In this document: positions 5,034 to 60,016 of the stretch, piece by piece
Layout of the letters: each line of letters begins with the position of its first letter
How positions within the stretch are numbered: the first letter of the stretch is position 1
Notes under the pieces: generated by a model
What the model was told of the DNA's origin: nothing
What the model saw: the letters and a program-made list of their open reading frames with translations, nothing else
Database searches by the model: none
Made by a program: the position numbers and the translations under genes
Origin: Candidatus Eiseniibacteriota bacterium
Lineage (GTDB): Bacteria > Eisenbacteria > RBG-16-71-46 > CAIMUX01 > VGJL01
Direction: 5' to 3'
Length of the DNA stretch: 64,000 nucleotides
NCBI GenBank assembly: GCA_041946735.1
Contig: JBHGAY010000004.1
Location: 5,425-69,424, forward strand

Positions 5034-5738
5034 ATGAGACGCTCGATCTTGCCTTTCGCGGCCGCCCTGGCCGCCGCCTTCGTCCTTTCCCCTGCCGCCG
5101 CCCTCGCGGACCAGTTCGTCGAGACCTTCGACGGCGGTTCGAACACGGGAGGCTGGACCTACGGCGCTCCCACCGAGGTGATCGAGTCCAATGGCGGGAA
5201 CCCCGGCGCCTACCTTCACGCTTCGGGGCTCGACACCTACGCTCCGCAGCCCCGGACGACGCAGCCGTCGATCTTCAGCGGAGACTTCCGCGCCGCGGGA
5301 GTCACCTCGATCGGAGTCGACCTCGCCACCTTCTATGTCGACTTCTCGGCCGAAGGGCGCCCCTTGAGCCTCATGCTCTACTCCGACAACGGGACCCCGG
5401 GAGACGACCTGGACGACTGGGCCGCCTACACGATGGGCGAGAACATCCCGATCCCCGGAGAGGGATGGCGGTCCTATGACTTCGACGTTCCGTCCGATTC
5501 CCCGACGTTGCCGGCCGGTTGGCTCACGATCGGGTTCGGCCCCGGCTCGCCGGAGAATCCCGACTGGAACGACGTCATCACCAACGTCTCGACGCTCGGC
5601 TTCTTCTACGGCGACCCGACGATGGTGTTCATCTTCCAGATGTGGGAACTGGGGATGGACAACGTCCGGATCACGTACGGCCAGCCGACCGCGGTCGAAG
5701 CGACGACCTGGGGAGGCGTGAAGGCGCTGTTCCGCTAA
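5034..5738 (+). CDS. Small secreted jelly-roll (LamG/concanavalin-like) protein with conserved C-terminal TTWGGVKALFR tail (paralogue A)
   Basis: ATG at 5034 with GGAGGA RBS. Signal peptide MRRSILPFAAALAAAFVLSPAAALA. C-terminus ...DNVRITYGQPTAVEATTWGGVKALFR. A rho-independent terminator follows at 5812..5860. Confidence 0.7.
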   Translation: MRRSILPFAAALAAAFVLSPAAALADQFVETFDGGSNTGGWTYGAPTEVIESNGGNPGAYLHASGLDTYAPQPRTTQPSIFSGDFRAAGVTSIGVDLATFYVDFSAEGRPLSLMLYSDNGTPGDDLDDWAAYTMGENIPIPGEGWRSYDFDVPSDSPTLPAGWLTIGFGPGSPENPDWNDVITNVSTLGFFYGDPTMVFIFQMWELGMDNVRITYGQPTAVEATTWGGVKALFR

Positions 5739-5811
5739 GCGTCGCCGCGAACCCCCGGCCGGCGAGCCGTGGCCGCGTGCGGTTTCGCGAGGCGGAAGGC
5801 GTGGCATGACG

Positions 5812-5860
5812 GGTGGGGTCGCGATCGTCCGAGGGCGATCGCGACCCCACCTCTTTTTCC
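5812..5860 (+). terminator. Rho-independent terminator downstream of paralogue A
   Basis: Perfect 16-bp inverted repeat GGTGGGGTCGCGATCG / CGATCGCGACCCCACC with an 8-nt loop, followed by TCTTTTTCC. Confidence 0.8.
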
Positions 5861-5861
5861 G

Positions 5862-6801: not shown

Positions 6802-6819
6802 GCGGGCGAGGGCGCGCGG

Positions 6820-7649: not shown

Positions 7650-8015
7650 ATGCTCGAGGCTCGGAGCCCCGGATCGGCGGCAGAGGGATGGGCGGAGGAG
7701 ATCGGCGCGGCGATCACCGTGACCGACGCGGAGGGGAGGATCCTGTCGATGAACGAGCGCTCGCGCGAGACGTTCGCCGCCGACGGGGGCGCGGCGCTCC
7801 TCGGGCGATCGGTCTTCGATTGCCACCCGGAGCCGGCGCGCACGAAGACGCGCGCGATGTATGCGACTCGGCAGGCGAACCACTACACGATCGAGAAGGA
7901 CGGCCGGCGGAAGATCATCCACCAACTTCCCTGGTTCCGGAACGGCGCCTTCGCGGGGTTTGTCGAGATCTCGATCCCGATCCCCGGCGCCCTCCCGCAC
8001 TTCGTGCGAGACTGA
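7650..8015 (+). CDS. Stand-alone PAS domain protein
   Basis: ATG 7650 with [33 protein letters not shown]...GRSVFDCHP...[29 protein letters not shown] is a PAS fold. Confidence 0.7.
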
Positions 8016-9445: not shown

Positions 9446-9497
9446 GACGCCTCATCTCGGACCGCCCGCCGGACGCCTCATCGCGGACCGCCCACCG
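9446..9497. repeat. Two tandem copies of a 26-bp unit at the GH38 3' end
   Basis: ACGCCTCATCTCGGACCGCCCGCCGG is followed by ACGCCTCATCGCGGACCGCCCACCGG. Confidence 0.7.
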
Positions 9498-12400: not shown

Positions 12401-13578
12401 GTCGCTCGCGGATAAGGCGCCGCGCCGAGCCAGTCGGCGGCGACCGACGCCTTCTCCGCTGCGTCGGCCAGCCGCTCGTTCTTGCGGTTCCATCGCTTCA
12501 TCGCGGCCTGCGAGGTGTAGCAGCCGATGCCGTGGTCGGTCATCAGCAGCTCGCCGCGATAGCGGGGGAGCGCGTCGCGCCGCTGCTGCGGAAGCTGCGC
12601 GATCTCGCGGGCGAAATCGTCCGAGCCGGCAGGGCGGATGAGAATCGGGCCGCCGCCGGCCAGGCTCTTCTCGAGCCACGCGACCGATTCCTCCGCCGGC
12701 GATCCTCCCTGGTCTCCGGTGCCGAAGTAGCGGAGCCCCTTGTACAATCCCGACGCCTTGCCTTGGCTCTCGATCGCGGCGATCGCTGACGAATCGGCGC
12801 TCCAGTCGTGGGTGATCCTGCCGACGTAGTCGCCCGGCCGCAAAGCGGCGGCGAGGGCCGAGCCATCCACTCCTTCCCAGATTCCGATATCGAACGGCAC
12901 GCCGTACGCGGAGCCCCAGGTGAGCTTCTGCGTGGAGAAGCCGAGGAGGCCGCAGTGCGCGGCGATCGAGGGGAGGGCATATCCGAAGCCGAAGCAGTCG
13001 GGCAGGAAGACGTCGCGGCTCCTCTTGCCGAACTCCTTCTCGAAGTAGCCGTTTCCGTAGAGCGCCTGCCGGATCAGCGATTCCGGTGACGGAATGTTCG
13101 TATCGACCGCGTCCACCCAGCTGCCGGCGACGCGCCACCGGCCGTCCGCGATCGCCCTTCGCATCCGCTCGTATTCGCTCGGGTAGTACTCCCGCATCAG
13201 CATGTAGCGGAACGCTCCCTCGAAGCTGAACACGTAGTCCGGGTACTTCTCGAAGTAGGCGAGGTTCTCGCGAAGGGTGGCTGGAAGGTACTCGTCGATC
13301 GTTTCGCGGATCGTCCAGCGCCATTGCGTGTCGAGATGCGCGGTCGCCACCACGTCCAGCTCGAGCTTCGGCGGGGGCGCCGGGTCGTCCGCGCCGGGCA
13401 CGGACGTCGCGGCGCCGGAGGCCGCGAGGGCGGGCGCGGCGCCCGCGGCGGCGCCGAGCGACGAGCCGGCGAGGCCACCGAGCATCCCGCAGACGACGAG
13501 AACGAGTAGGACGCTCGAGGCGAGCGCAGGCCGGAGGGACTCCCCACACCGCCGCGAACCGGACGGTCCACACTTCAT
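9478..13578 (-). CDS. GH38 alpha-mannosidase with C-terminal CHB_HEX_C-like and PA14 domains, secreted
   Basis: ATG 13578 with GGAGGAG RBS, overlapping the permease stop (ATGA). Signal peptide is present. GH38 N-domain motifs ATAHLDTQWRW and FLPDCFGFGYALPSIAAHCG. Later GATIRYTTDGTEP (chitobiase/hexosaminidase C-like) and a PA14 motif GWIEIRTEGIYTFHLFSDDGSALWIGD. The 9127..12789 + ORF is its antisense shadow. Confidence 0.85.
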   Translation of the reverse strand: MKCGPSGSRRCGESLRPALASSVLLVLVVCGMLGGLAGSSLGAAAGAAPALAASGAATSVPGADDPAPPPKLELDVVATAHLDTQWRWTIRETIDEYLPATLRENLAYFEKYPDYVFSFEGAFRYMLMREYYPSEYERMRRAIADGRWRVAGSWVDAVDTNIPSPESLIRQALYGNGYFEKEFGKRSRDVFLPDCFGFGYALPSIAAHCGLLGFSTQKLTWGSAYGVPFDIGIWEGVDGSALAAALRPGDYVGRITHDWSADSSAIAAIESQGKASGLYKGLRYFGTGDQGGSPAEESVAWLEKSLAGGGPILIRPAGSDDFAREIAQLPQQRRDALPRYRGELLMTDHGIGCYTSQAAMKRWNRKNERLADAAEKASVAADWLGAAPYPRATLNDAWIRFLWHQFHDDLTGTSIPEAYVYSWNDEAIASNLFRAVLADAAGGVARALDTRAKGIPVVVFNPLSIERTDPVEAEIAFEGAAAAQQAPASVRVYAPGGAEVASQATALGGGRYRIVFLATVPAVGFAVYDVRPSDRPCEIDTGLAVAPDGGRLENERYRVAIDARGQISSIYDKGAGRELLRAPVALEMLDDEPYDWAAWEIDYDDLMAQPREIVGGQVETAVIETGPARAAVRVTRRAGGSTIRQTIRLAGGGAGTRIEVDSDVDWRTKGTLLTASFPLAVSSPNATYDLGLGAIERGVNRKELYEVPGQQWADVTEPSGAYGVAVLNDCKYGWDRPDPATLRLALIRTPRVNDRWKWIEDQESMDLGRHRFCYAIAGHSGGWQDGGVVSEADRLNQPLLAFTTTPHEGGLGATFSLVSTSDPAIAIRAVKKAEEGNEIVVRLLETTGRPREAVALSFARPIAAARELNGAEEAIGPLEAASGRLVLDFRPFQPRTIAVRLADAPVALAPPKSTPVDLPWNLVGLTPCGSAGAGAFDNEGVSLPSELLPQTFQREGIAFRTGPREPGAANVVACQGQTVPLPLEARQGDRLCIVAASVDGDREASFRIDDGPPLPLTIHDYAEPIAQWNNRVTAGGLRSDPDSIEPAYEKDVRLAWLATHRHAAGGERLAYSFGHFFRYDLPLPGGAATVTLPNDPNVRILAMSLASAPNAATRPAIADVEPPAATCVKALADRLEFLDETRVRLVTPTPGATIRYTTDGTEPTIQSVLYRGPLTIQESRTVKARAFRDGLDDHYVAALAVTKLIPRPSDGVVRQTPGLICDYYEYGPEGGWEELPNFSALEPAAASAPIGQVALPSFARAERFGLVLRGWIEIRTEGIYTFHLFSDDGSALWIGDEKAIDNDGLHGRGAVSRTLALRPGLHPIRVEYFQGLGDSALELWYEGPGVPLAPVPAELLWQARPVGGPR

Positions 13579-15158
13579 CGCGACTCCTCCCGCCCGCTTG
13601 GGGGCTGGACCGCGGCGGACGCGGATGACGACGCGCCGCTCGATCGAGAAATCGGCCAGCGGGGCCGCAGCCGGAACCTCCGGCGCAGCCAACCTCGATG
13701 TTTCAGGCGGTCGAGAAGGACCGCTCCCAGGATCACGAGACCGAGGACCACCTTCTGCGTGTAGCTCTCGACGTTCGTGAGATTCATGCCGTTCTGAATC
13801 ACCGCGATAATGAACGCGCCGACCAGCGTGCCGAGGATCCGCCCCTCGCCGCCGGAGAGGCTCGTCCCGCCGACGACCACCGCGGCGATCACGTACAGCT
13901 CGTACGAGAGCCCGTAGGTCGGGGCGCCGCTCTTCAGCTGCGACGCCATCACGATCCCGCCGAGACCGGCCAACAGGCCGGAGACCGTGTAGACGAAAAG
14001 GAGGACGGCGCGGACGCGCACCCCGGCCAGGCGCGATGCTTCGGCATTCCCGCCGACCGCATAGATGTGGCGTCCCAGGACCGTGCGCGTCATCAGCAGA
14101 TGCGCGGCGGCGAACAGCGCGACCATCAACAGCACCGCATAGGGAAGTCCGAGGACCGGCTCGGCGCCGCGACCGAGCGCGACGAAGCGGCCGGGCACCT
14201 GGTAGATCGGTCGACCCGCGGAGAGCAGATAGGCGAGACCGCTCGCCACTTGCATCATGCCGAGCGTCGCGATGAAGGGGGGGACGTCGAAGCGGGTGAT
14301 CGCCAGGCCGGAGAGAAGCCCGGTCAAGCCGCACGCGAGGATGCCGGCGAGCGCGCCCGCGAGAAGGACCGTGCCGGTCGCGTCCGCCCCGCCGGCATGC
14401 GCGATCGTGCCGGTCGCGACGACGGCGGAGAGCGCGATCAGGCTCCCCACGGACAGGTCGATCCCTCCGGTCAGGATCACCATCGTCATGCCGACCGCGA
14501 GAATCGCGATCACGCTGATCTGGTTCGCGATGTTGCGCACGTTGTCGGGGAGCAGGAACGTCGGCCAGCGATACGACGGCGCGACGAGCACTTCGGCACC
14601 GGCGTACCCCGGCGTCGCATCGAGCACGGTGCGGACCGCCGGCGCGTTGGGGGCGAGCGTCGCGACGCGCAACGCGCCCGCGGAGCGGCCGGCGGGGCGC
14701 TCCGCGTCGGGGGCCTCGGCGGCCGGGCCCTCCGCTGCCGGAAGCTCCTCGGCCGGCTCCGCAGCCGGCTCCGTCGCCGGCTCCGCGACGAGCCGCTCCA
14801 GCGCCCGCCGCAGATCGGCCGGCTCCCCCTGGACCGTGGCGGCCACCGGAATCCCGCGGCGTGCGAGCCCGGCGGCCAGGCGGGCGGCAAAGGCGGCGCC
14901 GTCCTCCCCCTCGCGCACGGCGATCGCCACGGGAGCGCCGGCCGAGGCCGCGCCGGAGGAGGGGGCGGCGGCCTGCGCCGCAACGGCAGCGTCGAGGCGA
15001 GCGAGAATCGCGTCGGCGGCGCGAGCGCCGGAGGGCTGCTGCTCGCGGATCGTCGCGAGCGAGAAGAATCCCGCCAGCAGCAACAGGACCGCGAGCATCC
15101 CGTATTGCGAGGCGAGCTGGGAGCCGGCCGCCCGCAAGCGCGCGCCGAGCCCGCTCAC
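13575..15158 (-). CDS. Sugar ABC transporter permease (RbsC/AraH-like) with about 200-aa Ala/Pro/Glu-rich periplasmic insertion after TM1
   Basis: GTG 15158 overlaps the ATPase stop (GTGA). ...SQYGMLAVLLLLAGFFSLATI is TM1, then a long low-complexity loop, then the canonical BPD-2 permease core (NIANQISVIAILAVGMTMVILTGGIDLSVG...). An alternative start is ATG 15098. Confidence 0.8.
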   Translation of the reverse strand: MSGLGARLRAAGSQLASQYGMLAVLLLLAGFFSLATIREQQPSGARAADAILARLDAAVAAQAAAPSSGAASAGAPVAIAVREGEDGAAFAARLAAGLARRGIPVAATVQGEPADLRRALERLVAEPATEPAAEPAEELPAAEGPAAEAPDAERPAGRSAGALRVATLAPNAPAVRTVLDATPGYAGAEVLVAPSYRWPTFLLPDNVRNIANQISVIAILAVGMTMVILTGGIDLSVGSLIALSAVVATGTIAHAGGADATGTVLLAGALAGILACGLTGLLSGLAITRFDVPPFIATLGMMQVASGLAYLLSAGRPIYQVPGRFVALGRGAEPVLGLPYAVLLMVALFAAAHLLMTRTVLGRHIYAVGGNAEASRLAGVRVRAVLLFVYTVSGLLAGLGGIVMASQLKSGAPTYGLSYELYVIAAVVVGGTSLSGGEGRILGTLVGAFIIAVIQNGMNLTNVESYTQKVVLGLVILGAVLLDRLKHRGWLRRRFRLRPRWPISRSSGASSSASAAVQPPSGREESR

Positions 15159-16798
15159 GCGACCGCCAGGCGGAGCAGTTGCTCCTGGGTAGCGGAGGCG
15201 ACGTCGCGCACCTCGCCGGTCAATCGTCCCTCGTGCATGACGAGGATCCGGTCGGAGAGGGCGAGGATCTCGGGAAGCTCGGAGGAGATGACGAGGATCG
15301 ACTTGCCCTGTCCCGCCAGGTCGTCGATCAGGTTGTACATTTCGAACTTCGCCCCGACGTCGATGCCGCGTGTCGGCTCGTCGAAAAGCAGCACGCGCGC
15401 GTCGTTCTCGAGCCACCGGGCGACGAGCAGCTTCTGCTGGTTGCCGCCGGAGAGGTTGCGGGCCGGCTGCTCGGGGCCGGAAAGACGGATCCGCAGACCG
15501 TCCACGTAGCGAAGAAAGCGTGCGGACTCCTCGCGGCGGCGGATCCAGCCGAAGCGCGACCAGCGGGGCAGATTCGGCAGGGAGAAGTTCTCGCGGGCGG
15601 AGAGGCCGAGGACGAGTCCTTGCGCCTTGCGGTCCTCGGTCAGGAGCGCGATGCCGCGCGCGATCGCTTCGCGCGGGGAGCGGATCGCGACCGGCGTGCC
15701 GTCGAGAAGGATCTCGCCGGAGCGCGGGCGCTGTGCGCCGAAGAGCAGGCGCGCCAGGTCGGTCCGTCCCGAGCCGACGAGGCCGGCGAGCCCGAGGACC
15801 TCGCCGGCGTGGAGCGCGAGGGAGACGCCGCGCACGCGCCCGCCGGAGAGGTCGCGAGCCGCAAGGATCTCCGGGCCGCGCGCGCCCGCCGCGCGACGCA
15901 GGCGCTGGCCGACCGGGCGCCCCACCATCCGCCGGATCATCTCCTCGCGCGTCAGCTCGGAGCGCAGCCAGGTGCCGATCGTCTTGCCGTCCCGCAGGAT
16001 CGTGACCCGGTCGGCGATCGCGAGCACCTCTTCGAGCCGGTGGCTGATGAAGAGGATGCCCTTCCCGGCGGCGCGCAGGTCGCGCAAAAGCGCAAGCAGC
16101 CGCTCCACCTCGCGCGGCGTGAGCGCGGCCGTCGGCTCGTCGAGGACGAGGAGCCGCGCGTCGGCAAGGAGCGCGCGAGCGATCACGATGAGCTGCTGCT
16201 GCGCCACGTCGAGATCGCGCACGAGCGACTCGGGATCGATCGGCGCGCCGAGCCGCTCGAGCGCGTCGCGGGAGCGAGCTCTCTCGATCCGAAGGTCGGG
16301 GATCCCGAAGCGGGCCGGTTCCCGACCGAGGAAGAGGTTCTCGCGGACGCTGCGCGCGGGGAGGAGGTCCAGCTCCTGGTAGATCGCCGCGATGCCGAGC
16401 CGCTGGGCCGCGATCGGGTCGGGCAGGACGGTCGGACGTCCGTCGATTTCGACCTCGCCGCCGTCCGGCGCGTGCGCCCCCGTCGCGATCTTCAGCAGAG
16501 TGCTCTTGCCCGCGCCGTTCTCACCGACGAGCGCGTGGACCTCGCCGGCTCGGATGTCCAGGTCGGCGCCGCGCAGCGCGTGCACACCGGGGAAGCGCTT
16601 GTGGACCCCGGCGAGGCGAAGAATCGGAACGGAGGGGGCGGCCGGCTCCGTGGGCCCGGTGGGCTCGGTGGGCTCCGTGGGCTCGGCGGGCCCGCCAACC
16701 GGTGGGATGGCCGGTGGGATGGACGGCGGCCCGCCCGTGCGAGCCGCGGCGATCTCTGCCGCGGCACCGGAGCGAGATGCCTTGTCGCCCCCCCTCAC
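15155..16798 (-). CDS. Sugar ABC transporter ATP-binding protein (two fused ABC domains, RbsA/MglA-like)
   Basis: GTG 16798 is 13 nt downstream of the SBP stop. Walker A GENGAGKST is present, LSGGNQQKLLVARWL sits in the second ABC domain (the first-domain signature was not located), and the two-domain length is 547 aa. The N-terminus contains a PTEPTEPTGPTEP repeat encoded by a 9-bp microsatellite. Confidence 0.85.
   Translation of the reverse strand: MRGGDKASRSGAAAEIAAARTGGPPSIPPAIPPVGGPAEPTEPTEPTGPTEPAAPSVPILRLAGVHKRFPGVHALRGADLDIRAGEVHALVGENGAGKSTLLKIATGAHAPDGGEVEIDGRPTVLPDPIAAQRLGIAAIYQELDLLPARSVRENLFLGREPARFGIPDLRIERARSRDALERLGAPIDPESLVRDLDVAQQQLIVIARALLADARLLVLDEPTAALTPREVERLLALLRDLRAAGKGILFISHRLEEVLAIADRVTILRDGKTIGTWLRSELTREEMIRRMVGRPVGQRLRRAAGARGPEILAARDLSGGRVRGVSLALHAGEVLGLAGLVGSGRTDLARLLFGAQRPRSGEILLDGTPVAIRSPREAIARGIALLTEDRKAQGLVLGLSARENFSLPNLPRWSRFGWIRRREESARFLRYVDGLRIRLSGPEQPARNLSGGNQQKLLVARWLENDARVLLFDEPTRGIDVGAKFEMYNLIDDLAGQGKSILVISSELPEILALSDRILVMHEGRLTGEVRDVASATQEQLLRLAVA
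16647..16729. repeat. In-frame microsatellites (9-bp unit G[GC]TGGGC[TC]C x5, then 12-bp unit CCGGTGGGATGG x2) inside the ABC ATPase 5' end
   Basis: Direct tandem copies are visible at 16647-16693 and 16701-16729. They encode PTEPTEPTGPTEP and AIPPAIPP at the protein N-terminus. Confidence 0.8.
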
Positions 16799-18164: not shown

Positions 18165-18213
18165 GCGAAAGGGGGAAGAAAGCGCCCCGCCTTCCCTTGG
18201 AATGCGGGGCGCT
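18165..18213 (-). terminator. Rho-independent terminator downstream of paralogue B (minus strand)
   Basis: 10-bp GC stem AGCGCCCCGC / GCGGGGCGCT (plus coordinates 18181-18190 / 18204-18213) with a 13-nt loop. On the minus strand it is followed by TTCTTCCCCCTTTCG. Confidence 0.65.
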
Positions 18214-18271: not shown

Positions 18272-18967
18272 CTACCGGAAGCTCTGCTTGACCTTCCCCC
18301 AGGTCGTGTTCTGCGTCGCGACCGGGTTGTATATGGTGAGCGAGAGGTCGTCCCAGTAGACCGGGCTGGCGCTGTTGGCGAAGAGGTCGATGCAGGCGAT
18401 GTCCAGAACGCCACCGCCGCTGACCCCGTCCGTCCAGCTCTTCTGGTACAGCATCTGTCCGTTGAAGTAGAAGGTCTGGATGTTCAGATCGAGATCGATG
18501 ATCACGTAGACTTCGACCCACTGGTCGTAGACCAGCGGAAGGGTGTCGGTCTCCGGATCGGAGACGATGATGTCGTTGGCGCCGTCGAAGTAGACCTGCG
18601 AGGACCAGTTGTACGGACCGCCGTCATTGTACGTGTTCAGCAGGAGGATGTAGTTGATCCCGCTGAGCGACGACGGAATGTACACCCAACCCCTGAGCTC
18701 GTTGACCCCGGACGTGTAGCCGTCCCACTCGTGCACGATGTCGGTCGCGCCCGTGATGGAGACGGAGTTCGAGGGGCTGTGCGAGTAGAGATCGGTCACG
18801 TAGGCATCGGCGGCGGGGTTGCCGTCCCAGCCGTGCCATCCGCCCTGTCCGTGAAGTCCGCTTCCGACGACGTAGGAATCGAAGTTCTCGAACCAATCGG
18901 CCGAGGCGATCCCAGGAAGCGCCGCGAAGGCCAGAATCGAGCAGAACAGTAGTAGCTTGTGCTTCAT
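18272..18967 (-). CDS. Small secreted jelly-roll lectin-like protein with conserved C-terminal TTWGKVKQSFR tail (paralogue B)
   Basis: ATG 18967 with AGGAGGAG RBS. Signal peptide MKHKLLLFCSILAFAALPGIASA. C-terminus ...VYWDDLSLTIYNPVATQNTTWGKVKQSFR. A terminator follows. Confidence 0.7.
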   Translation of the reverse strand: MKHKLLLFCSILAFAALPGIASADWFENFDSYVVGSGLHGQGGWHGWDGNPAADAYVTDLYSHSPSNSVSITGATDIVHEWDGYTSGVNELRGWVYIPSSLSGINYILLLNTYNDGGPYNWSSQVYFDGANDIIVSDPETDTLPLVYDQWVEVYVIIDLDLNIQTFYFNGQMLYQKSWTDGVSGGGVLDIACIDLFANSASPVYWDDLSLTIYNPVATQNTTWGKVKQSFR

Positions 18968-20586: not shown

Positions 20587-20712
20587 GATCTCTCTCCCAT
20601 GCCGGGCGCAAAGGCTCGGTATCGATTTCGCGCCGCCACGGCGCCGCTGGCGCAGCCCTCTTCGTCCGCGGCGATCTCAGCGCTCCGCTAACGATCAGCG
20701 CTCCGCTGACGA

Positions 20713-21771
20713 TCAGCGCTCCGCGTCGATCCGCAGGAGCACCTTCCCGACGTTCTCGTTCCGCTGGAGGATCGCGTGAGCCTCCTCCGCTCGCTCGACG
20801 GGAAGGATCGCGTGCACGATCGGCCGGATCGCCCCCGCTTCGAAACGGGGCCAGAGCGCGCGTCGCATCCGCTCGAGGATCGCCGCCTTCTCGCCAGCGG
20901 GACGGGAACGCAGGACGCTCCCGATGATGCGCAGCCGCCTCGAGAGCAGCGGGCGGAGATCGATCCTCGCCTCTCCACCCCGCATCAGGCCGACCACGAT
21001 CCACCGTCCGCCGGGATTGAGCAAGGTCAGCATCCCCCCCAGATCCTCGCCGCCGAGGCAATCGAGGACCACGTCGATCCCCGGCGCGGGCGGCGCGGCC
21101 GGCGCTGCCGGTGGCGGCGCGGCCTCCGCGGGCGGGCGGGCGAGCGAGCGCAACCGCTCCAGGACGTCCTCGCGGTGGCGATCGATGACGACGTCGGCGC
21201 CCAGGGCACGCACCCGCTCCGCCTTCGGCTCGGAGCCGACCGTCGTGACGATGCGGGCCCCTCGGTCCTTCGCGATCTGGATCGCCGCCGTCCCTACGCC
21301 GCTCGCGCCCGCGTGGACGACAACCGTCTCCCCGCGCGCGAGCCGTCCCTCGAGCACGAGGTTCAGGAAGGCGGTGGTGAACGCTTCGGGGATCGCGGCG
21401 GCCTCCTCGATCGACAGTCCCGCCGGGATCGGGAGGACGTGGCGCGCGTCGACGGCGACCTTCTCCGCGTAGCCTCCCCCCGACAGGAGGCAGCAGACGG
21501 GATCGCCGGGATGCCACGCCGGCGTCGCCGCGGCCCGGCCGATTCGAGCGAGTGGAGCGCCGGCCGACTCGATATTGCCGGCCGCTTCGAGCCCCATCCA
21601 CTCGGGAGCGCCGGCGGGAGGCGGGTAGAGCCCGCGACGCTGGAGCAGGTCGCCCCGGTTGACGCCGCAGGCGCGGACGCGCACGACCACTTCGCCGGGG
21701 CCCGGGACCGGATCGGGGACTTCGCTCCACCGCAGGCTCCGGTCGTCCGGGTCGATCATGATTGCGCGCAT
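20713..21771 (-). CDS. NAD(P)H:quinone oxidoreductase, MDR/zinc-ADH superfamily (Qor-like)
   Basis: ATG 21771 with GGCGAGGAGGGA RBS. MRAIMIDPDD...LRWSEVPDPVPGPGEVVVRVRACGVNRGDLLQRRGLYPPP...VVHAGASGVGTAAIQIAKDRGARIV is the Qor signature. Confidence 0.8.
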   Translation of the reverse strand: MRAIMIDPDDRSLRWSEVPDPVPGPGEVVVRVRACGVNRGDLLQRRGLYPPPAGAPEWMGLEAAGNIESAGAPLARIGRAAATPAWHPGDPVCCLLSGGGYAEKVAVDARHVLPIPAGLSIEEAAAIPEAFTTAFLNLVLEGRLARGETVVVHAGASGVGTAAIQIAKDRGARIVTTVGSEPKAERVRALGADVVIDRHREDVLERLRSLARPPAEAAPPPAAPAAPPAPGIDVVLDCLGGEDLGGMLTLLNPGGRWIVVGLMRGGEARIDLRPLLSRRLRIIGSVLRSRPAGEKAAILERMRRALWPRFEAGAIRPIVHAILPVERAEEAHAILQRNENVGKVLLRIDAER

Positions 21772-21972
21772 CGATCCCTCCTCGCCCTCTCGGCAGCCGC
21801 TCACGGCGCTCCCGGCCGCTCTCGAGCCCGGAATCCGCCGGCGCGCACGAGGGCAGCTTCGAGCCTCGCGTGCGCCGGTATCCTACCAAGCGCATCACGA
21901 TCCCGAGAGCCGGCCGCTTCCCCGGAAGTCCCATCGTCGCTATGCTCTCGCGAGTATTGCCTTCGAGAGGAG

Positions 21973-23967
21973 ATGGCGATCTTGCAGAGCGTTCCATCGA
22001 TCGACTACCAGGAGCTCGGCTTGAAGGCCGGGCTCGAGGTCCACCAGCAGCTCCTGACCGACACGAAGATGTTCTGCCACTGCCCCGCCGGCCGCTACAC
22101 GGAGACCCACGATGGGGAAGTGCTGCGGCACATGCGTCCCACGCTTTCCGAGCTGGGGGAGTACGACGGGACGGCGCTCATGGAGTTCCGGACCAAGAAG
22201 AACATCATCTACCTGCTGCACAAGGAAAACGTCTGCACTTACGAAATGGACGACACGCCCCCCTTCCTGGTCAATCAGGAAGCGATCGACATCGCGATCG
22301 AGCAGTGTTTGATGCTGGGGTGCGACATCGTCGACGAGGTGCACATCGCGCGCAAGCAGTACCTCGACGGATCGATCCCGACCGGCTTCCAGCGCACGGC
22401 GATCGTGGGCGTCAACGGCAGGCTTCCGTTTCGCGGCCGCGAGATCTCGATCACGCAGGTCAGCGTCGAGGAGGATTCGTGCCGGGAGGTCTCGGACCGC
22501 GGGCACCTGATCGTCTGGCGGACGGACCGGCTCGGCATGCCGCTCATCGAGACGGTGACAGGTCCCGACCTGCGCACTCCCGAGGAGGTCGAGGAGGCGA
22601 TCCTGCTGATCGGGCGCGTGTGCCGGAGCACCGGGCACGTGCGGGTCGGGATCGGCGCGAGCCGGCAGGACGTCAATGTCTCGGTGCGCGGCGGGCGGCG
22701 GGTGGAAATCAAGGGGGTGCCGCAGGCGCATTGGGCGAGGCGTCTCGTCCACGGCGAAGCGATCCGCCAATGGAACCTGCTGCGGCTGCGAGACGATCTG
22801 CGCCGGCGCGGCTTCGAGAAGCCGGCAGATCTCCGCATCGACGGCTTCAACGTCACCGACGTCTTCGCGGCGAGCGCGCTGCAGCAGCTGCGGGCCGAAT
22901 CGTGGGAGCGCTGGGTGGCGACGACCGGCCGGCGGGTGGGCTTCGAGTTGCGGCCGGGACCGTTCTGCGTGCGCGCCATCCTCTTGAAGGGCCTCGCCGG
23001 CGCGCTGAGCTGGCCGACGCAGCCGGACTTGACGTTCGCCGCCGAGCTGGCGGGACGCGTGCGGGTGATCGCCGGGCTCGATCAGGCGCCGATCCTCTAT
23101 CACGACGAGAAGTGGCCGGACTACGAGGGCTCGGTCGCCGAGTTGCGGCGGGTTCGCAACCGCCTTCGCTGCGATCCCGGCGATGCGATCGTCGTCGTCT
23201 GGGGGTCCGAAGAGGACACGATCACGGCGATGGAGGAGATCCGCACCCGCTTCGCCGACGCGCTCGACGGCGTCCCGAACGAGACGCGGCAGCCGTTCCA
23301 GGATGGGCGGACCGATTTCGAGCGCATCCTTCCGGGACCCGACCGGATGTATCCGGATACCGACAGCCCTCCGTCGCTCGTCACGCGCGAGCGCGTCGAG
23401 CGGTTGCGCCGCGATCTCGCGCCGCGCCCGTGGGAGCGGGAGGCGCGCTACGCGGCGGCCGGGGTGCCGCTCCCCACGATCCACTACCTGATCCGCCGCA
23501 ACGGCGCCGCTCTCGTCGACCGCGTCGCGGAATCGTGCGGGGCCGACCTGCGACATGCCTGCTTCTTCTTCGGCGAGCGGCTGAAGGGACTCCGCAGGGC
23601 GGGGATCGCGGTCCGTTCGATCCCCGAGGAGCGATGGTGCGAGCTGTTCCGAGCGATCGCGGAGCGGCCGATCTTGCGCGAAGCCTGGGAAGTCCTCGTG
23701 CGGAAGATGGCGAGCGCGCCGCCGGCCAGTGTCGCGGAGATCCTCGCGACCGAGGGGCTCGGCGCGGCGCCGGCGCGCTGGCGGGAGATCGTGGACAGAC
23801 AGATCGACGCGGCTCGGAGAGATCTCTACGAAGAGGATCCCGGCCGGCTGCGGCGTCTTGCGATGGGAAGGTGCATGGCGGTCCTTCGCGGGAAGGTGCC
23901 CGCGAAGGAGGTGGCGGCGGCGCTGGACGAGAGCCTCGCGGCGAGGAGCGTGCATGGCCGGGGATGA
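21973..23967 (+). CDS. gatE: Glutamyl-tRNA(Gln) amidotransferase subunit E (archaeal-type GatE)
   Basis: ATG 21973 with GAGAGGAG RBS. MAILQSVPSIDYQELGLKAGLEVHQQLLTDTKMFCHCP matches the GatE N-terminus (M..DY.KLGLK.GLEIHQQL.T..KLFC.CP). It is about 664 aa, longer than GatB, and is followed by an asparaginase-like partner. Confidence 0.8.
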   Translation: MAILQSVPSIDYQELGLKAGLEVHQQLLTDTKMFCHCPAGRYTETHDGEVLRHMRPTLSELGEYDGTALMEFRTKKNIIYLLHKENVCTYEMDDTPPFLVNQEAIDIAIEQCLMLGCDIVDEVHIARKQYLDGSIPTGFQRTAIVGVNGRLPFRGREISITQVSVEEDSCREVSDRGHLIVWRTDRLGMPLIETVTGPDLRTPEEVEEAILLIGRVCRSTGHVRVGIGASRQDVNVSVRGGRRVEIKGVPQAHWARRLVHGEAIRQWNLLRLRDDLRRRGFEKPADLRIDGFNVTDVFAASALQQLRAESWERWVATTGRRVGFELRPGPFCVRAILLKGLAGALSWPTQPDLTFAAELAGRVRVIAGLDQAPILYHDEKWPDYEGSVAELRRVRNRLRCDPGDAIVVVWGSEEDTITAMEEIRTRFADALDGVPNETRQPFQDGRTDFERILPGPDRMYPDTDSPPSLVTRERVERLRRDLAPRPWEREARYAAAGVPLPTIHYLIRRNGAALVDRVAESCGADLRHACFFFGERLKGLRRAGIAVRSIPEERWCELFRAIAERPILREAWEVLVRKMASAPPASVAEILATEGLGAAPARWREIVDRQIDAARRDLYEEDPGRLRRLAMGRCMAVLRGKVPAKEVAAALDESLAARSVHGRG

Positions 23968-25342
23968 CCTGAAGGGATACAAGGGGCGGGCGCGGGCGAA
24001 GCTGGCCGAGCTGGGCGTACGCGTCTGGAGCGACGTGCGCCTGCGCAACGACGCGGGGAGCGTGTTCGAGGGGGTGATCCTGCCGCGGAGCGAGACGCTC
24101 GACGACGCGCATGTCGTGATCAAGATGAAGAACGGCTACAACGTCGGCGTGCACATCGACCGGATCGCGGAGGTGCAGGAGGTCGGCTACAAGGAAGCGG
24201 TCTACAAGATCCCCGAGAAGGAATTCCCGCGGCGCCCCGACCTGCCGTCGGTCACGCTGCTCGGAACCGGCGGGACGATCGCCTCTCGCCTGGACTACCG
24301 GACCGGAGCGGTCATCCCCGCCTTCACGCCGGGCGAGTTGTACGGCGCCGTTCCGGAGCTGGCGGACATCTGCAATCTCACGACGAAGAAGATCTTCGGC
24401 GTCTTCTCCGAGAACATGTCGAAGGATCAGTACATCGAGCTGGCGCAAGCGATCGGCGCGGAGATCGAGGGGGGAGCCGACGGGATCGTAATCGGCCATG
24501 GCACCGACACGATGGGGCACACCGCCGCGATTCTCTCCTTCATGGTGCAGAACTCCCCGGTGCCGATCGTCCTGGTCGGATCGCAGCGCTCGAGCGACCG
24601 CCCGTCGAGTGACGCCGCGCTGAACCTGATCCATTCCGTCCGGTCGGCGGCATACGGCGAAATCGCCGAGGTCGTCATCTGCATGTTCGGGCCGACCTCC
24701 GACCGCTACGGGCTGCTTCATCGCGGGACGCGATGCCGCAAGATGCACAGCTCCTACCGCAGCACGTTCCGGACGGTGGGAGACACTCCGCTCGCGACGG
24801 TGAGCCGCGACGAGTTTTCCTACCTGACGGCAGACTTCCGCCGGCGGGACCGTTCGCGGAAGGTCGTCGTCGATCCGGTCTACGACGACCGGGCCACGAT
24901 CCTCTACTACTACCCGGGTATGCGTCCGGATCTCGTCGATGCGCTCGTCGAGAAGGGGTATCGCGGGATCGTGATAGCCGGGACCGGCCTCGGCCACGTG
25001 AACAAGCCGCTCTACCCGGCGTTGAAGCGCGCGGTCGCCGCGGGCGTGCATATCGTCATGACCGTGCAAACGCTCTGGGGATATGCGCAGATGTATGTCT
25101 ACGACACGGGGCGCGACCTGATCGACATCGGCGTCGTGCCGCTCGACAACATGCTCCCCGAGACCGCGCTGATGAAGCTCTCCTGGGTGCTCGCTCACAC
25201 GGACGACCACGACGAGGTGATGCGAATGATGCGTCGCTCCATCAGCCACGAGATCACCTCGCGGGAGCCGCACAACGGGTACCTGATCCTTCAGGGAGGG
25301 CTGCCCGACACCGAGGAGTTCATCGCTTCGCACTGGAAGTAG
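23954..25342 (+). CDS. gatD: Glutamyl-tRNA(Gln) amidotransferase subunit D (GatD, L-asparaginase-like)
   Basis: ATG 23954 overlaps the gatE end by 14 nt. The asparaginase catalytic motif LLGTGGTIAS and HGTDTM are present, with a GatD-type N-terminal extension (KGYKGRARAKLAELGVRVWSDVRLRNDAG...). Confidence 0.8.
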   Translation: MAGDDLKGYKGRARAKLAELGVRVWSDVRLRNDAGSVFEGVILPRSETLDDAHVVIKMKNGYNVGVHIDRIAEVQEVGYKEAVYKIPEKEFPRRPDLPSVTLLGTGGTIASRLDYRTGAVIPAFTPGELYGAVPELADICNLTTKKIFGVFSENMSKDQYIELAQAIGAEIEGGADGIVIGHGTDTMGHTAAILSFMVQNSPVPIVLVGSQRSSDRPSSDAALNLIHSVRSAAYGEIAEVVICMFGPTSDRYGLLHRGTRCRKMHSSYRSTFRTVGDTPLATVSRDEFSYLTADFRRRDRSRKVVVDPVYDDRATILYYYPGMRPDLVDALVEKGYRGIVIAGTGLGHVNKPLYPALKRAVAAGVHIVMTVQTLWGYAQMYVYDTGRDLIDIGVVPLDNMLPETALMKLSWVLAHTDDHDEVMRMMRRSISHEITSREPHNGYLILQGGLPDTEEFIASHWK

Positions 25343-56347: not shown

Positions 56348-57088
56348 GTGAGAGAGATCTTCTTGGCGCTCATGGCAGCCGCCTTGCTCGGAGGTGTCGT
56401 GCTTCCGACATCCGGGGAAACGATTTACCTGTACGCTGACTTCAATGACCAGCCGCTCGACCAGCCGATCGGAACGGGCGGACCGGAGCTGGGCCAACCG
56501 ATCGAGGTGGATCCTTTCATCTCGACTGCCGTGCGAGAGGATCCGATGGGATCTGCGAGCCTCGAGATCCGGGACGCAGATGACTACAGCGCGGGCTCCG
56601 TTTGTTTCGAGCTGCTCGACGGCGCCGAACTTTCCAGCGGCCGCGTCGTGATCGCCGCCGATCTCTGGTTCCAAGCGCTTGCGGACGGCTACAGCTTCTT
56701 CTTCGGTGTCCGGGAGCACGGGGGAAACGCCCAGACCTTCGCATCGCTCAACTTCGTGTATGAAGGATCGATCACGCTCCGCGACAAGCAGGGCCCAGCC
56801 GGAATGATCGGACGCTACGAGATCGGCCGCCGGACCCACCTCGTTCTCGACTATGACCTGGACGCAGGAACGTACAGCGTGATGGTGGACGGCTCAGTTC
56901 TGGTGGCGGACCGGGCACATGGTGTGACCGGCAGGGGGATCGGCCGCCTCCTCATCGGCTGTAACAACGATTCCGACCTCGATGGCGTGTTCAACGTGGA
57001 TCTGATCACCGTGACCGACACCATCCGGGAAGTCGCGGCCGCAACGACGACCTGGGGGAAGGTAAGGGCGAGCTTCGGCAGGCGCTGA
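56348..57088 (+). CDS. Small secreted jelly-roll protein with conserved C-terminal TTWGKVRASFGRR tail (paralogue C)
   Basis: GTG 56348 with GGGAGGAG RBS. Signal peptide (M)REIFLALMAAALLGGVVLPTSG. C-terminus ...VFNVDLITVTDTIREVAAATTTWGKVRASFGRR. It is divergent from the sigma-54 activator. Confidence 0.65.
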   Translation: MREIFLALMAAALLGGVVLPTSGETIYLYADFNDQPLDQPIGTGGPELGQPIEVDPFISTAVREDPMGSASLEIRDADDYSAGSVCFELLDGAELSSGRVVIAADLWFQALADGYSFFFGVREHGGNAQTFASLNFVYEGSITLRDKQGPAGMIGRYEIGRRTHLVLDYDLDAGTYSVMVDGSVLVADRAHGVTGRGIGRLLIGCNNDSDLDGVFNVDLITVTDTIREVAAATTTWGKVRASFGRR

Positions 57089-57379
57089 TCGAGTGCCGTC
57101 GGGTCTGAAAGTCGGCGAACGAACATCTCCTCCCCGGAGCCAAACACGCCGCCGCCACGAACATTCGAGGAAGCTGGCGCGTGCTCGCCGTCATTGCGGC
57201 CGGGTTCGGCTGCTTCTCGATCGAAGCAACCGCTGAATTAGCCGTTGAAGTAGCCGTCCCCGGCCGCTATCCTCTCCCGTTCGTTTCGACGCTTGCCCCC
57301 GCCCGGCGCGACGGCGGTTCCACGATCGATCCCTTTTCGTCATCCACGATATCTGGCGGCCGCCATGGAGGTTCGTGTC

Positions 57380-60016
57380 ATGCGTTCACAACGCCGCCTC
57401 GACTGCGCAGGTCGATCCCTACTCCTCGTCGCGCTGACTCTCACGCCGTTTGCCGGCGCGGTCGCTCAGTCCCCGAGCTTGAGCTGGGACCGCGACCAGT
57501 CGCGGAACAACGTCGTGTTCGACAGCGAGGAGGGTCTCTTGCGACAGGACTTCCTGCGGTATCGGGCGGCTCACGAGCTCGAATCCGAGGAAGGGCAGGC
57601 GGACCTTCTGGGCGACAACGAGACGGCCGTCGTCGTGAACCCGGCCGATCCGTCGAACGTCGCCTATGCCTCGCTCTGGGAGCTGCGCGTCTCGATCGAT
57701 GGCGGTCAGACCTTCCAGCCGCCGGTCGCCTCGTCCATCCCGCCGACCCATTACGCCGTCGGAGATCCCTCGCTCGCCTTCGACGCGGACGGCCGCCTCT
57801 ACTGGACTTACCTCGCAAGCCTCGTCGATGACACGCACACCGACATCTTCCTCGCTCAATGCGATCCGGCGACCGGCGAGGTCCTCCCCGGCTATCCGGT
57901 CAACATCTCCGCGCAGACCGGATTCGAGTCGTGCACCGACAAGGAGTGGCTCGCGGTCGACTCCTGGCCGGGCAGCCCCTTCGCCAACCGGCTCTACGTC
58001 ACCTGGACCGACATGGGCTCCGGCTGCTCGTTCGCCAATGACAATCAGAGATTCACCTACTCGACCGATCACGGGCTCACGTGGGCGACGAAGCAGACGC
58101 TCGCCACCGGGAGCTCCTGGCCGGTGAGCATGGCGGTCGCCAGCAACGGTGACGTCTACGTCGCCTATCACGGTTGGACGCAGATTGCGAACGAGCCCGG
58201 GACCGGCTTCGTGAAAATGGTCCGGTCGACGAACGGCGGAGCGAGCTTCGCTCCGGCGACCGATCCATTCCCGCCGGGCAGCGCCAGCATCACCACGAAC
58301 ATCGACCGCGATCTCCCGCACGTCCGCTTCTGGCTGCAAGGAAGTTTGCAGGCCTGGATCCTTCCCGATCCGCATGCGCCGTCCCACCTTGCCGTCATCG
58401 CCTGCGATGACCCGGAGAACGATTTCTCCTCCGGCGATCCGTCGGACGTCATGATCGCGCGGTCGACGAACAGCGGGCAGACGTGGACGGTCCCGCAAAG
58501 GGTGGAGTCGAGCGCCTCGGGGCTGCTGCAGGTGATGCCTTCGGCTGCCGTCGATCGGACGACGGGCAACATTGCCGTGACCTGGTACGACAATCGCGAA
58601 GGAGGCGTGAACGCGGACGGAAACTATCTTCTCGACACCTACGCGGCCGTGAGCACGGATGGAGGAGCCTCGTTCCTCGACGCCTTCCGCATCAGCGACG
58701 TCCCCTTCGACCCGGACCTGCGCGCGCCGTGCAGGTTCAACTGCCCGCCCCGCATCTTCACGTCATGGGACGGAGGAGCGAACTGCGCCTACATCTGCGG
58801 CAACGCCGTCTACAAGTGGAACGGAACGAGCTGGGCGCCGGTGAACCCCGGCGGAACGGCTCAGAAGAACGGCGTTTGGGGCGCCTCCCCCTCGGCGGTC
58901 TGGATCGTTGGGAACTCCGGCGAGATCCGCTTCTGGAACGGCACGCAGTGGTCGGGTCAGACGAGCCCTACCAGCTTGAGCTTGTACAAAGTGCACGGAC
59001 AATCGGCGACAAATGTGACAGCCGTGGGCAACGGCGGCGCGATCGTCCACTGGAACGGGACGAACTGGTCGTTGCAGCCGAGCGGTTTCAACGGCAGTCT
59101 GCGCGGCATCTGGACGCTTCCCGGAGGTACCGCCTGGGCTGCCGGCCGCGCGGGCACCGTCCTCCATTTCGACGGCGTGTCCTGGAGTCCCGCGACTCCG
59201 ATCCCCACCGATCAGCACCTGCAGGACGTCTGGGCCACCTCCGACGCGAACGTCTGGACCGTCGGCCTGAACGGCGGCATCTATCACTGGAACGGGTCGA
59301 GCTGGACCACGATCGAGTCCAACCTCTCGAGCCTCACCGCGGTCTGGGGCAGCGGACCCGACGACATCTACTTCGCGGGATGGGGAAACGACGTCCTTCA
59401 CTGGAACGGTCAGGAGATGGAGCGGCAGGCGATCGGCGGAGACGTGTTCGACATCAACGGCGCCGGTCCCGACGACATCCTGATGTCTCGAAACCCGGGA
59501 AGGGCGACCCGCTTCGATGGAAACTCATGGGTCGAGCAGCCGGTGCCGGTCCTACCTGCGACGGCCGTGCTCCGAATCGGCGAGTACACCGGCACCGCAG
59601 TTGCTGGTGTGCGCGGTCTCGCTACATGGACCGGAAATTCCACGAGAGGAGATTCCGACCCGCCCGCGCAGGCCGCCTTCTTCGACGTCTTCCCGGCCGG
59701 CGGGCCCGCTTCCGCCGGAGAGATCGCGGCCGGTCCCTCGCTTCTGCTGCTCGAGGGTGGGCATCCGAATCCATTCCGGTGGGTGACGGAGATCGGCTAT
59801 TCGCTTCCCGAACCGAAGCACGTCTCCGTCCGCGTCTTCGACGTCTCCGGACGGCTGGTCGATCTGCTCGACTCCGGTATGCGCGACGCGGGGCCCCACG
59901 ATGTGACGTGGGACGGGCGCGATGCTTCCGGGAGAGCCGCCCCGGCGGGCACATACTTCGTGAGGCTCGAGGCGGAGGGCAAGGCGAGCACCGCAACGAT
60001 CGTCCTGTCGCGTTGA
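57380..60016 (+). CDS. Secreted BNR/Asp-box (sialidase-fold) protein followed by seven W/FxGxxW beta-propeller-type repeats and a C-terminal FlgD-Ig/T9SS-like sorting domain
   Basis: ATG 57380, 8 nt after GGAGG. Signal peptide MRSQRRLDCAGRSLLLVALTLTPFAGAVAQ. Asp-boxes STDHGLTW, STNGGASF, STNSGQTW, STDGGASF. About 47-aa repeats YKWNGTSW, RFWNGTQW, VHWNGTNW, LHFDGVSW, YHWNGSSW, LHWNGQEM, TRFDGNSW. The tail is HPNPFRWVTEIGYSLP...VTWDGRDASGRAAPAGTYFVRL. Confidence 0.7.
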   Translation: MRSQRRLDCAGRSLLLVALTLTPFAGAVAQSPSLSWDRDQSRNNVVFDSEEGLLRQDFLRYRAAHELESEEGQADLLGDNETAVVVNPADPSNVAYASLWELRVSIDGGQTFQPPVASSIPPTHYAVGDPSLAFDADGRLYWTYLASLVDDTHTDIFLAQCDPATGEVLPGYPVNISAQTGFESCTDKEWLAVDSWPGSPFANRLYVTWTDMGSGCSFANDNQRFTYSTDHGLTWATKQTLATGSSWPVSMAVASNGDVYVAYHGWTQIANEPGTGFVKMVRSTNGGASFAPATDPFPPGSASITTNIDRDLPHVRFWLQGSLQAWILPDPHAPSHLAVIACDDPENDFSSGDPSDVMIARSTNSGQTWTVPQRVESSASGLLQVMPSAAVDRTTGNIAVTWYDNREGGVNADGNYLLDTYAAVSTDGGASFLDAFRISDVPFDPDLRAPCRFNCPPRIFTSWDGGANCAYICGNAVYKWNGTSWAPVNPGGTAQKNGVWGASPSAVWIVGNSGEIRFWNGTQWSGQTSPTSLSLYKVHGQSATNVTAVGNGGAIVHWNGTNWSLQPSGFNGSLRGIWTLPGGTAWAAGRAGTVLHFDGVSWSPATPIPTDQHLQDVWATSDANVWTVGLNGGIYHWNGSSWTTIESNLSSLTAVWGSGPDDIYFAGWGNDVLHWNGQEMERQAIGGDVFDINGAGPDDILMSRNPGRATRFDGNSWVEQPVPVLPATAVLRIGEYTGTAVAGVRGLATWTGNSTRGDSDPPAQAAFFDVFPAGGPASAGEIAAGPSLLLLEGGHPNPFRWVTEIGYSLPEPKHVSVRVFDVSGRLVDLLDSGMRDAGPHDVTWDGRDASGRAAPAGTYFVRLEAEGKASTATIVLSR

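Follow-up and report, generated by a model that had tools for sequence, protein, structure and literature searches.

Conserved C-terminal tags of exported proteins have earlier led to envelope machinery, as was the case for the sortases, exosortases, archaeosortases, rhombosortases, myxosortases and the type IX secretion system (T9SS). Here, another element of this kind is described: a tail of about 19 residues, with the core TTWG.V[KR]..F, that ends three small secreted proteins (A, B and C) encoded in a 64-kb stretch of contig JBHGAY010000004.1 from a Candidatus Eiseniibacteriota bacterium (the window, 68% GC). Most likely it is a protein address label of a kind not described so far. Judged from their gene sequences, many Sec-exported proteins that are unrelated to each other bear it in the Eisenbacteria and in a few phyla allied to them within the FCB group (the Fibrobacterota-Chlorobiota-Bacteroidota superphylum), and homologues of A, B and C can carry an established sorting domain at the very same position.

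Among the described systems, the tripartite signals (PEP-CTERM, LPXTG, MYXO-CTERM, GlyGly-CTERM and PGF-CTERM) resemble the tail in many respects. Both are located at the extreme C-terminus of signal-peptide cargo, occur in many copies per genome on unrelated proteins, are restricted to certain lineages, contain few near-invariant residues and are interchangeable on homologous bodies. The tail differs in what follows the signature: only nine residues are found after the Trp, closed by one R or K, and a tail of this kind cannot keep its cargo in the inner membrane until an intramembrane sorting enzyme acts on it. In the tripartite signals, moreover, the signature residues open a longer homology domain, which is not the case in the tail. 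PEP-CTERM (TIGR02595 / PF07589), for example, consists of the PEP motif, a transmembrane helix and an Arg cluster. As was originally predicted, the tail is not a PEP-CTERM, since neither A, B and C nor their isolated tails match a PEP-CTERM model at E <= 1. More generally, the tail does not belong to the LPXTG, PEP-CTERM or MYXO-CTERM class because it lacks both the transmembrane helix and the Arg cluster.

Eight attributes for recognising small C-terminal sorting signals were proposed by Haft (preprint 10.1101/2023.06.07.544157). By our comparison, the tail appears to display six of these (attributes 1, 2, 3, 6, 7 and 8; preprint 10.1101/2023.06.07.544157), in that it is located at the C-terminus, is present several times per genome, contains three or more near-invariant residues, is found on proteins with an N-terminal signal peptide, joins members that have nothing but the tag in common, and is replaced by other tags in homologues. 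The transmembrane segment (attribute 4) is absent, as the Trp is followed by no more than 8-9 residues, K and R included. The terminal cluster of two to five basic residues (attribute 5) is absent as well: in 129 of the 144 tails from the listed loci the final residue is R or K, and this basic residue stands alone. A putative sorting domain that resembles the tripartite signals, WGxxGxxG-CTERM (NCBIfam NF038039), has been described, the enzyme of which was not identified (preprint 10.1101/2023.06.07.544157). Like the tail, it is a C-terminal motif that starts with WG and was found by comparative genomics. The tail, however, contains neither the Gly-repeat motif nor the hydrophobic segment, and the NF038039 model does not match it at E <= 1.

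The T9SS type A domain (TIGR04183 / PF18962; FlgD_ig, PF13860) is a beta-sandwich of 70-90 residues, whereas the tail consists of a linker and a predicted helix of about nine residues. The two are found in the same genomes and in the same window, they occupy one and the same junction in A and C homologues, and both usually end in a basic residue. The tail cargo is mostly small (median 232 amino acids, among the matches listed) in comparison to the larger FlgD_ig-tailed neighbours. The tail differs from the FlgD_ig ends of the large proteins of the window, as had been claimed: no T9SS model matches it, and it is modelled as a linker with a short helix by AlphaFold2 (AF2).

Soluble proteins can also be anchored by short C-terminal amphipathic helices, such as the membrane-targeting sequence of MinD and the C-terminus of PBP5/6. 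The predicted tail helix is likewise short, basic, aromatic and amphipathic. Such anchors, however, are defined by their physical character, are not swapped with sorting domains and are not lineage-specific elements shared by many cargo proteins. Finally, the beta-signal of outer membrane proteins, which is read by BAM, shares with the tail a conserved aromatic close to the C-terminal end of exported proteins. In the tail, R or K usually comes last instead of F, Y or W, the cargo is soluble (jelly-roll or beta-helix) and alternating hydrophobic residues are absent, in line with the original exclusion of this signature.

The tail is undescribed in the sources searched. Pfam and NCBIfam gave no sorting-domain match at E <= 1, whether whole A, B and C or the isolated tails were used. 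A profile search of PDB sequences with the tail returned only chance internal matches, and full-text literature searches with the motif strings, or for Eisenbacteria combined with sorting or T9SS, yielded nothing relevant. A match to an already defined sorting domain, which would have spoken against the original prediction, was thus found in none of these searches.

The tail and its cargo

The three proteins, their tails and the hairpins that follow two of them are located in the window as follows.

5034..5738, forward strand: protein A, 234 amino acids; Sec signal at residues 1-25 (5034-5108), body of unassigned family, tail
5685..5735, forward strand: tail of A, PTAVEATTWGGVKALFR; core motif at 5703-5732, TAA stop codon at 5736-5738
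5811..5852, forward strand: intrinsic-terminator-like hairpin after A; 19-bp stem with 13 GC pairs, then a T-run
18272..18967, reverse strand: protein B, 231 amino acids; Sec signal at residues 1-23 (18967-18899), jelly roll similar to concanavalin A (ConA) to about residue 212, linker, tail
18275..18325, reverse strand: tail of B, PVATQNTTWGKVKQSFR; core motif at 18278-18307, TAG stop codon at 18272-18274
18181..18213, reverse strand: hairpin downstream of B; perfect GC-rich 10-bp stem, 13-nt loop, then TTCTT (read by eye)
56348..57088, forward strand: protein C, 246 amino acids; Sec signal at residues 1-23 (56348-56416), beta-sandwich to about residue 223, disordered linker, tail
57032..57085, forward strand: tail of C, EVAAATTTWGKVRASFGRR / VAAATTTWGKVRASFGRR; core motif at 57047-57076

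The three open reading frames (ORFs) and their tails were confirmed by the ORF listing, and the starts of B (18967) and C (56348) are also those of the NCBI gene calls. B (P0001, 231 amino acids) and C (P0191, 246 amino acids) correspond with 100% identity and coverage to the hypothetical proteins ACE15D_03260 and ACE15D_03390, both with the source label 'Candidatus Eisenbacteria bacterium'. The region 18272..18310 comprises the stop codon of B, R231, the motif T221-F230 and the Asn codon before the motif. The tail of C is a variant, in which R replaces K and three extra residues lead to the ending GRR. As predicted, all three N-termini read as Sec-like signals with AxA-type or similar cleavage sites. 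The claim that A and B each have a strong terminator holds for A. For B it holds less well, as the stem comprises only 10 bp and the terminator scanner did not call it, the loop of 13 nt being longer than 8 nt. Downstream of C, no terminator-like site was found by the terminator scan.

A, B and C had been regarded as paralogues, which is overstated. No significant similarity is found between A and C in pairwise comparison, and the sole significant alignment of A and B covers the last 26 residues (E 4e-5). B and C display a weak C-terminal alignment of 91 residues, the tail included. The common tail is all the more notable because the three proteins are not close paralogues. Against Pfam and NCBIfam, the whole proteins gave no meaningful family match.

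The LamG/ConA-like bodies of the original prediction are borne out for B, while C is modelled as a beta-sandwich. The AF2 model of B is a beta-sandwich with a predicted local distance difference test (pLDDT) of 93, and its Foldseek matches are ConA-/lectin-like jelly rolls at E ~1e-7, including the Hc N-subdomains of clostridial neurotoxins and the glucuronan lyase 2zzj. The model of C is also a beta-sandwich (pLDDT 85). In both models the fold ends ahead of the tail (at residue 212 in B and residue 223 in C) and is followed by a lower-confidence linker. In B, a flexible linker (residues 213-222) leads to a predicted helix at residues 223-229 (WGKVKQS, pLDDT ~82). In C, the helix is predicted at residues 236-243 (WGKVRASF, pLDDT ~45). 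Because the last beta-strand precedes the linker and the tail is modelled as a separate short helix in both proteins, the tail is not a strand of the jelly roll. The hydrophobic moment of typical tails as a helix is ~0.56-0.58, a value that does not separate helix from strand at nine residues.

Within the window, the motif is confined to these three tails. The pattern [ST]WG.[VIL][KR] gives three matches in the six frames of the 64 kb, all of which are the tails of A, B and C and lie 1-3 residues from a stop codon; the three tails are also the only matches to TTWG.V[KR]..F in all six frames. A 48-nt degenerate DNA pattern of the tail with its stop codon matches A and B, in comparison to none in 100 shuffles.

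The full module comprises about 19 residues, P-[TV]-[PA]-[VT]-E-x-[ST]-[ST]-W-G-x-[IV]-K-x-[LMS]-[FY]-[RK]-stop. It terminates 75 of the 120 listed homologues of B, and many homologues of A and of C end in it as well. Residues were counted over the 74 unique tails from the listed B homologues, with the Trp as position 0.

Position -6: P or A in 71/74
Position -4: E or Q in 56/74
Position -1: S or T in 74/74
Position 0: W in 74/74
Position +1: G in 68/74
Position +3: I, V or L in 73/74
Position +4: K in 70/74
Position +7: F or Y in 70/74
Position +8: R or K in 60/74

In 66 of these 74 tails the stop codon follows exactly one residue past the aromatic. The tail was also searched as a padded profile with 26 residues of the A body (45 columns kept) against 5.8 billion proteins and 1.84 billion representatives. 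The larger index returned five short fragments, three of them C-terminal fragments of family A. The representatives returned mostly C-terminal regions of the A family and revealed the tail swaps in this family that are described below.

The spread of the module was determined by back-translating it to a degenerate DNA pattern that includes the stop codon, with which one genome per GTDB species was scanned. The pattern demanded AAG and T[AT]C codons. At least 130 matches at a minimum of 120 loci were obtained, and all those listed end ORFs at a true stop codon. A motif limited to three recent duplicates, the outcome that would have counted against the original prediction, can thus be set aside given the 75 B homologues, the many A and C homologues and the at least 130 ORFs. 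When the stop codon was not preselected, 32 further matches to a relaxed motif were found at the listed loci, of which 26 lie 0-3 and three lie 4-10 residues from the stop. Taken together, the tail is almost certainly a conserved, autonomous C-terminal module.

Most complete tagged ORFs encode about 150-850 amino acids (the median given above is over n=105). A signal-like N-terminus is present in 90 of these 105 by a simple hydrophobicity rule; 87 are of the signal peptidase I (non-lipoprotein) type, and at most three contain a lipobox. After removal of the last 22 residues, BLAST at E < 1e-5 separates 117 tagged bodies into 58 clusters (among the matches listed). The cargo includes right-handed beta-helix proteins (PF13229) and large Cys-rich repeat proteins, while the majority has no Pfam family. 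The Cys-rich repeats are arranged in tandem, measure about 40 residues (ACC.P.G.C......C..P..WHPEW..C.PNPCP) and either lie between body and tail or make up most of the protein. They occur at loci L035 (an 863-residue ORF), L047, L065 and L068 and in the homologues P0042, P0046, P0047, P0049, P0058 and P0125, and have no Pfam match.

The named records among the matches listed are mostly Eisenbacteria, followed by Gemmatimonadota, Latescibacterota (with the complete genomes CP070677.1 and OY970173.1 among the records so labelled), 'Fibrobacteraceae' and Krumholzibacteriota; one tail-bearing contig of 2.9 kb is labelled Planctomycetota. Proteobacteria, Actinobacteria and Bacteroidota are absent from the named matches at these loci, as found with a GC-biased pattern. 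Several copies per genome occur: next to the three in the window, tandem arrays of four (L023) and three (L067) tagged genes are found elsewhere, and single metagenome-assembled genomes (MAGs) contribute several loci, such as JAPEKQ01 (L023 with its four genes, L033 and L054) and JAUWLR01 (L026, L031, L050 and L097). The same pattern gave two matches in 2.9 million viral contigs, of which one resembles a genuine tail. This ORF ends in SATQSATWGRVKADFR (L125, 9072-9119, reverse strand) and is located on the viral-classed contig IMGVR_UViG_3300028920_002654. This contig could in fact be bacterial, either misclassified or carrying a prophage.

A side observation concerns the stop codon, which is TAG in 96 of 144 tagged ORFs (67%) and in 75 of 184 conserved untagged ORFs (41%) at the listed loci (Fisher odds ratio 2.9, p 4e-6, a p value that is inflated as the genes are related). 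Two other possibilities were rejected. P0142 contains five 40-residue repeats with TKTWGEIKSAF, a chance resemblance inside a long hydrophobic, repeat-rich protein. The tail as a remnant upstream of a T9SS domain was dismissed as well: in the sole internal case (L004) it is followed by non-coding-looking sequence and no C-terminal domain.

Exchange of C-terminal modules at a common junction

The most informative result is that the tail is swapped for other C-terminal modules at a common junction, in each of the three families. In the B family, the body ends in ...YYDDLSL and is followed by the tail, by PEP-CTERM, by a MYXO-CTERM-labelled tail or by dockerin-like repeats. The PEP-CTERM members P0048 and P0099 (with VPEPA...LLRRR tails) score at or above the TIGR02595 cut-off, and the tails of P0065 and P0071 are labelled MYXO-CTERM by the Joint Genome Institute (JGI).

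In the A family, the body ends in ...FFYGDPT.FFIFQMW.LGLDNPRIT. The tail follows in P0121-123, P0126-128, P0130, P0132, P0135, P0159 and P0187. Other members carry PEP-CTERM (P0129 and P0147, both above the TIGR02595 cut-off), dockerin-like repeats or a FlgD_ig-like domain. The last of these is found in P0131, whose body is 68% identical to that of A and in which the FlgD_ig-like C-terminal domain takes the place of the tail. The dockerin-like repeats at the junction of some A- and B-family homologues were read by eye. On the PEP-CTERM model, the true PEP-CTERM tails of homologues score 16-27 bits.

The C family displays the same behaviour towards the T9SS. The canonical tail is present in P0192-194 and P0198-200, while P0195 contains a T9SS type A domain (PF18962; TIGR04183 score 34.8, cut-off 23) and P0196 and P0197 carry FlgD_ig (PF13860). 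Domains of this type also end other proteins of the window:

57254..60016 (stop-to-stop), forward strand: large secreted protein with a T9SS type A / FlgD_ig end (PF13860; TIGR04183 score 24.0, cut-off 23)
41059-42723, reverse strand: PNGase-F-like protein with a FlgD_ig end (TIGR04183 score 21.9, just below the cut-off of 23)
42773-46318, reverse strand: right-handed beta-helix protein with a FlgD_ig end (by profile match)

Since the window contains both the tail and type A / FlgD_ig domains, two distinct C-terminal tags coexist in this organism. The tail and a PEP-CTERM-like tail can also share one genome, because both are present in JAPEKQ01 (MAG173-P120). In this MAG, which is rich in tagged genes, a 233-residue ORF on the reverse strand of L054 has a PEP-CTERM-like end, PVPEPSTLLLLGSGLIGLGAVTRRRFRK, as judged by eye.

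Another ending, F-[AV]-D-G-F-E-[ST]-G-D-...-W-S, recurs at the tail junction in homologues of A, B and C. It was seen in P0103, P0104, P0143, P0201 and P0203-P0207 and may represent a further alternative C-terminal module or a linker motif.

How the tail may be read

The reading we favour, and consider fairly likely, is that the tail acts as a sorting or attachment tag that is read by a protein. The original prediction had proposed a dedicated sorting, processing or attachment system, and this interpretation is supported by the exchange with T9SS type A, PEP-CTERM, MYXO-CTERM-labelled and dockerin-like modules in the three families. In the proposed mechanism, the cargo would first be exported by Sec and its signal peptide, which is seen in the sequences, would be removed. 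The body would then fold, and the flexible linker of 8-12 residues would present the predicted helix W-G-x-[IV]-K-x-L-[FY], of 2-2.5 turns, which in the models ends one residue short of the carboxyl terminus. A lineage-specific receptor protein of the envelope would read this peptide, so that the cargo is directed to or held at the cell surface. The tail would thereby do the job that is thought to be done by the T9SS type A domain, PEP-CTERM or dockerin on homologous bodies. More tentatively, the tail may belong to an undescribed envelope sorting or attachment pathway of the Eisenbacteria, Latescibacterota, Gemmatimonadota, Krumholzibacteriota and relatives, in which a receptor, a processing enzyme or an unrecognised second input to the type IX-like machinery would read a helical peptide of about nine residues. 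Such a design would resemble neither the tripartite signals nor the beta-sandwich domain of the T9SS.

Several observations weigh against a dedicated tag of this kind. With neither a transmembrane helix nor an Arg cluster, and being far shorter than the T9SS domain, the tail is not expected to be read by any known machinery. No recurrent sortase, protease, transporter or receptor candidate was found within 8 kb of the 120 listed tagged loci, and the Pfam map of the window also gave no partner candidate, its genes being metabolic, transport and regulatory ones. The confidence of the predicted helix is modest in B and low in C. Every match of the tail comes from a MAG, and low-GC lineages are under-sampled because of the codons demanded by the scan pattern. 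Moreover, the motif is internal or in tandem in a lipoprotein family. The lipoprotein-like P0154 (L126, 10001-10819), next to which housekeeping genes and an HNH-like ORF are located, contains four motif copies about 19 residues apart, and a 470-residue ORF of this family (L010) contains two copies, each behind a repeated domain. The motif thus does not require a free C-terminus in every case, and such copies are easier to reconcile with a unit for binding than with a cleavage signal confined to the terminus.

The neighbourhood search was based on the clustering of 2,385 ORFs from the 120 listed loci. The recurrent neighbours that emerged, namely FlgD_ig-tailed proteins, TPR proteins (sulfatase- or glycosyltransferase-like by eye) and extracytoplasmic function (ECF) sigma factors, were rejected as background.

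The tail could alternatively be a self-sufficient amphipathic anchor, the cationic, aromatic helix of which inserts into the membrane interface or binds lipopolysaccharide without any sorting enzyme. Small secreted lectin-like proteins would thereby be tethered to the envelope much as MinD or PBP5 are by their C-terminal helices. This we regard as unlikely, even though several features suit it: the terminal helix is detached from the body in the AF2 models of B and C; it would place W, I/V, L and F/Y on one face with K and R flanking, and typical tails have the hydrophobic moment given above; and no partner gene was found at the tagged loci or in the window. The tandem copies of P0154 would also raise the avidity of a weak binding unit. 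The hydrophobic moment, however, does not discriminate between helix and strand at this length, and nine residues are very short to anchor a monomer stably. Helices that bind lipids usually conserve their amphipathicity, whereas in the tail the W is invariant, G and K exceed 90%, and the P..E and [ST][ST] positions are conserved too. The distance to the C-terminus is also nearly fixed, and the narrow set of lineages would be odd for a generic physical mechanism. A protein receptor is favoured over lipid binding because conservation covers the specific W, G, K and aromatic residues and the spacing from the C-terminus, and not just the amphipathic character.

A more specific version of the favoured reading is that the tail serves as a third, minimal type IX secretion signal, read by the T9SS translocon or by its PorU/PorV attachment complex, so that small cargo would have an alternative to the type A domain of 70-90 residues. 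It appears about as doubtful as the amphipathic anchor. The exchange with type A and FlgD_ig domains (A and P0131 at 68% identity; C and P0195-197) points in this direction, as does the ending hydrophobic-hydrophobic/aromatic-[KR]-COOH that is usual in both tags. Genes for FlgD_ig-tailed proteins, mostly of several hundred to about 1,400 amino acids, are located near tagged genes in roughly 40 of the 120 listed loci. In L023, a PorU-like gene (5689-8000, forward strand; NF033707, E 9e-38, cut by the end of the locus) lies directly downstream of the array of four tagged genes, accompanied by a UshA-like gene with several CxxCH motifs. The same PorU-like order recurs in L062 (a 1256-residue ORF on the reverse strand) from a different MAG, and a PorV/PorQ-like barrel is found in L126. 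L062 is syntenic with L023, however, and because the two represent one independent event the PorU adjacency is not statistical evidence. The tail also matches no T9SS domain model and lacks the beta-sandwich, and it swaps equally readily with PEP-CTERM and dockerin-like modules. The main T9SS phylum, Bacteroidota, is missing from the listed loci, with the GC bias of the pattern as a caveat.

It is less probable still that the tail has a structural role or one in assembly, for example by mediating oligomerisation or, like a dockerin of minimal size, by docking the cargo to a scaffold. Its residue-specific conservation would suit a protein-protein contact, dockerin-like repeats share its position in some homologues, and the internal and tandem copies are compatible with such a role. 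The 58 unrelated body clusters, however, oppose any function tied to one fold, and near the tagged genes of the listed loci no scaffold with repeated receptor modules was found. If the scaffold is at the surface, such docking already amounts to attachment, and the explanation therefore overlaps with the tag read by a protein.

Arrest peptides such as TnaC and SecM act from the ribosome exit tunnel. That the tail is such a peptide, pausing the ribosome at termination and conserved for the sake of translation, is very improbable: the invariant Trp at a fixed nine residues before the stop and the TAG preference (67% against 41%) would suit it, but the latter statistic is inflated by related genes, dozens of different cargo genes carry the tail per lineage, the strong terminator after A and the hairpin after B leave no obvious downstream gene to regulate, P0154 contains internal copies, and the swaps with sorting domains have no counterpart among arrest peptides.

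Other window genes and significance

Some other genes of the window are also worth recording. Adjacent genes at 20710-25342 (forward strand) match GatB_N/GatE-type and GatD_N + Asparaginase domains and, from these matches, look like a GatDE-type amidotransferase pair. This enzyme is regarded as archaeal, and its presence in a bacterial MAG would be unusual if confirmed. A stop-to-stop ORF of about 1,900 residues at 9478-15219 (reverse strand) combines a GH38 alpha-mannosidase with CHB_HEX_C and PA14; together with the PNGase-F-like protein at 41059-42723, it suggests the degradation of N-glycans or mannosides. At 60239-63448 (forward strand), a large fusion of a Ser/Thr kinase, a STAND NTPase and TPR adjoins the FlgD_ig-tailed protein downstream of C.

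The tail is abundant in phyla that are known almost only from metagenomes and whose cell-surface biology is essentially uncharted. The usual rules for finding signals would miss it, because it contains neither a membrane-spanning segment nor a folded domain. A hidden Markov model of the tail would flag many 'hypothetical' secreted proteins of these phyla as their likely surface or exported proteome, with lectin-like jelly rolls, beta-helix proteins and Cys-rich repeat proteins among them. The distribution of the tail also provides a phylogenetic profile that can be used for locating its reader. If the favoured reading is true, the tail would be a very compact and portable targeting peptide.

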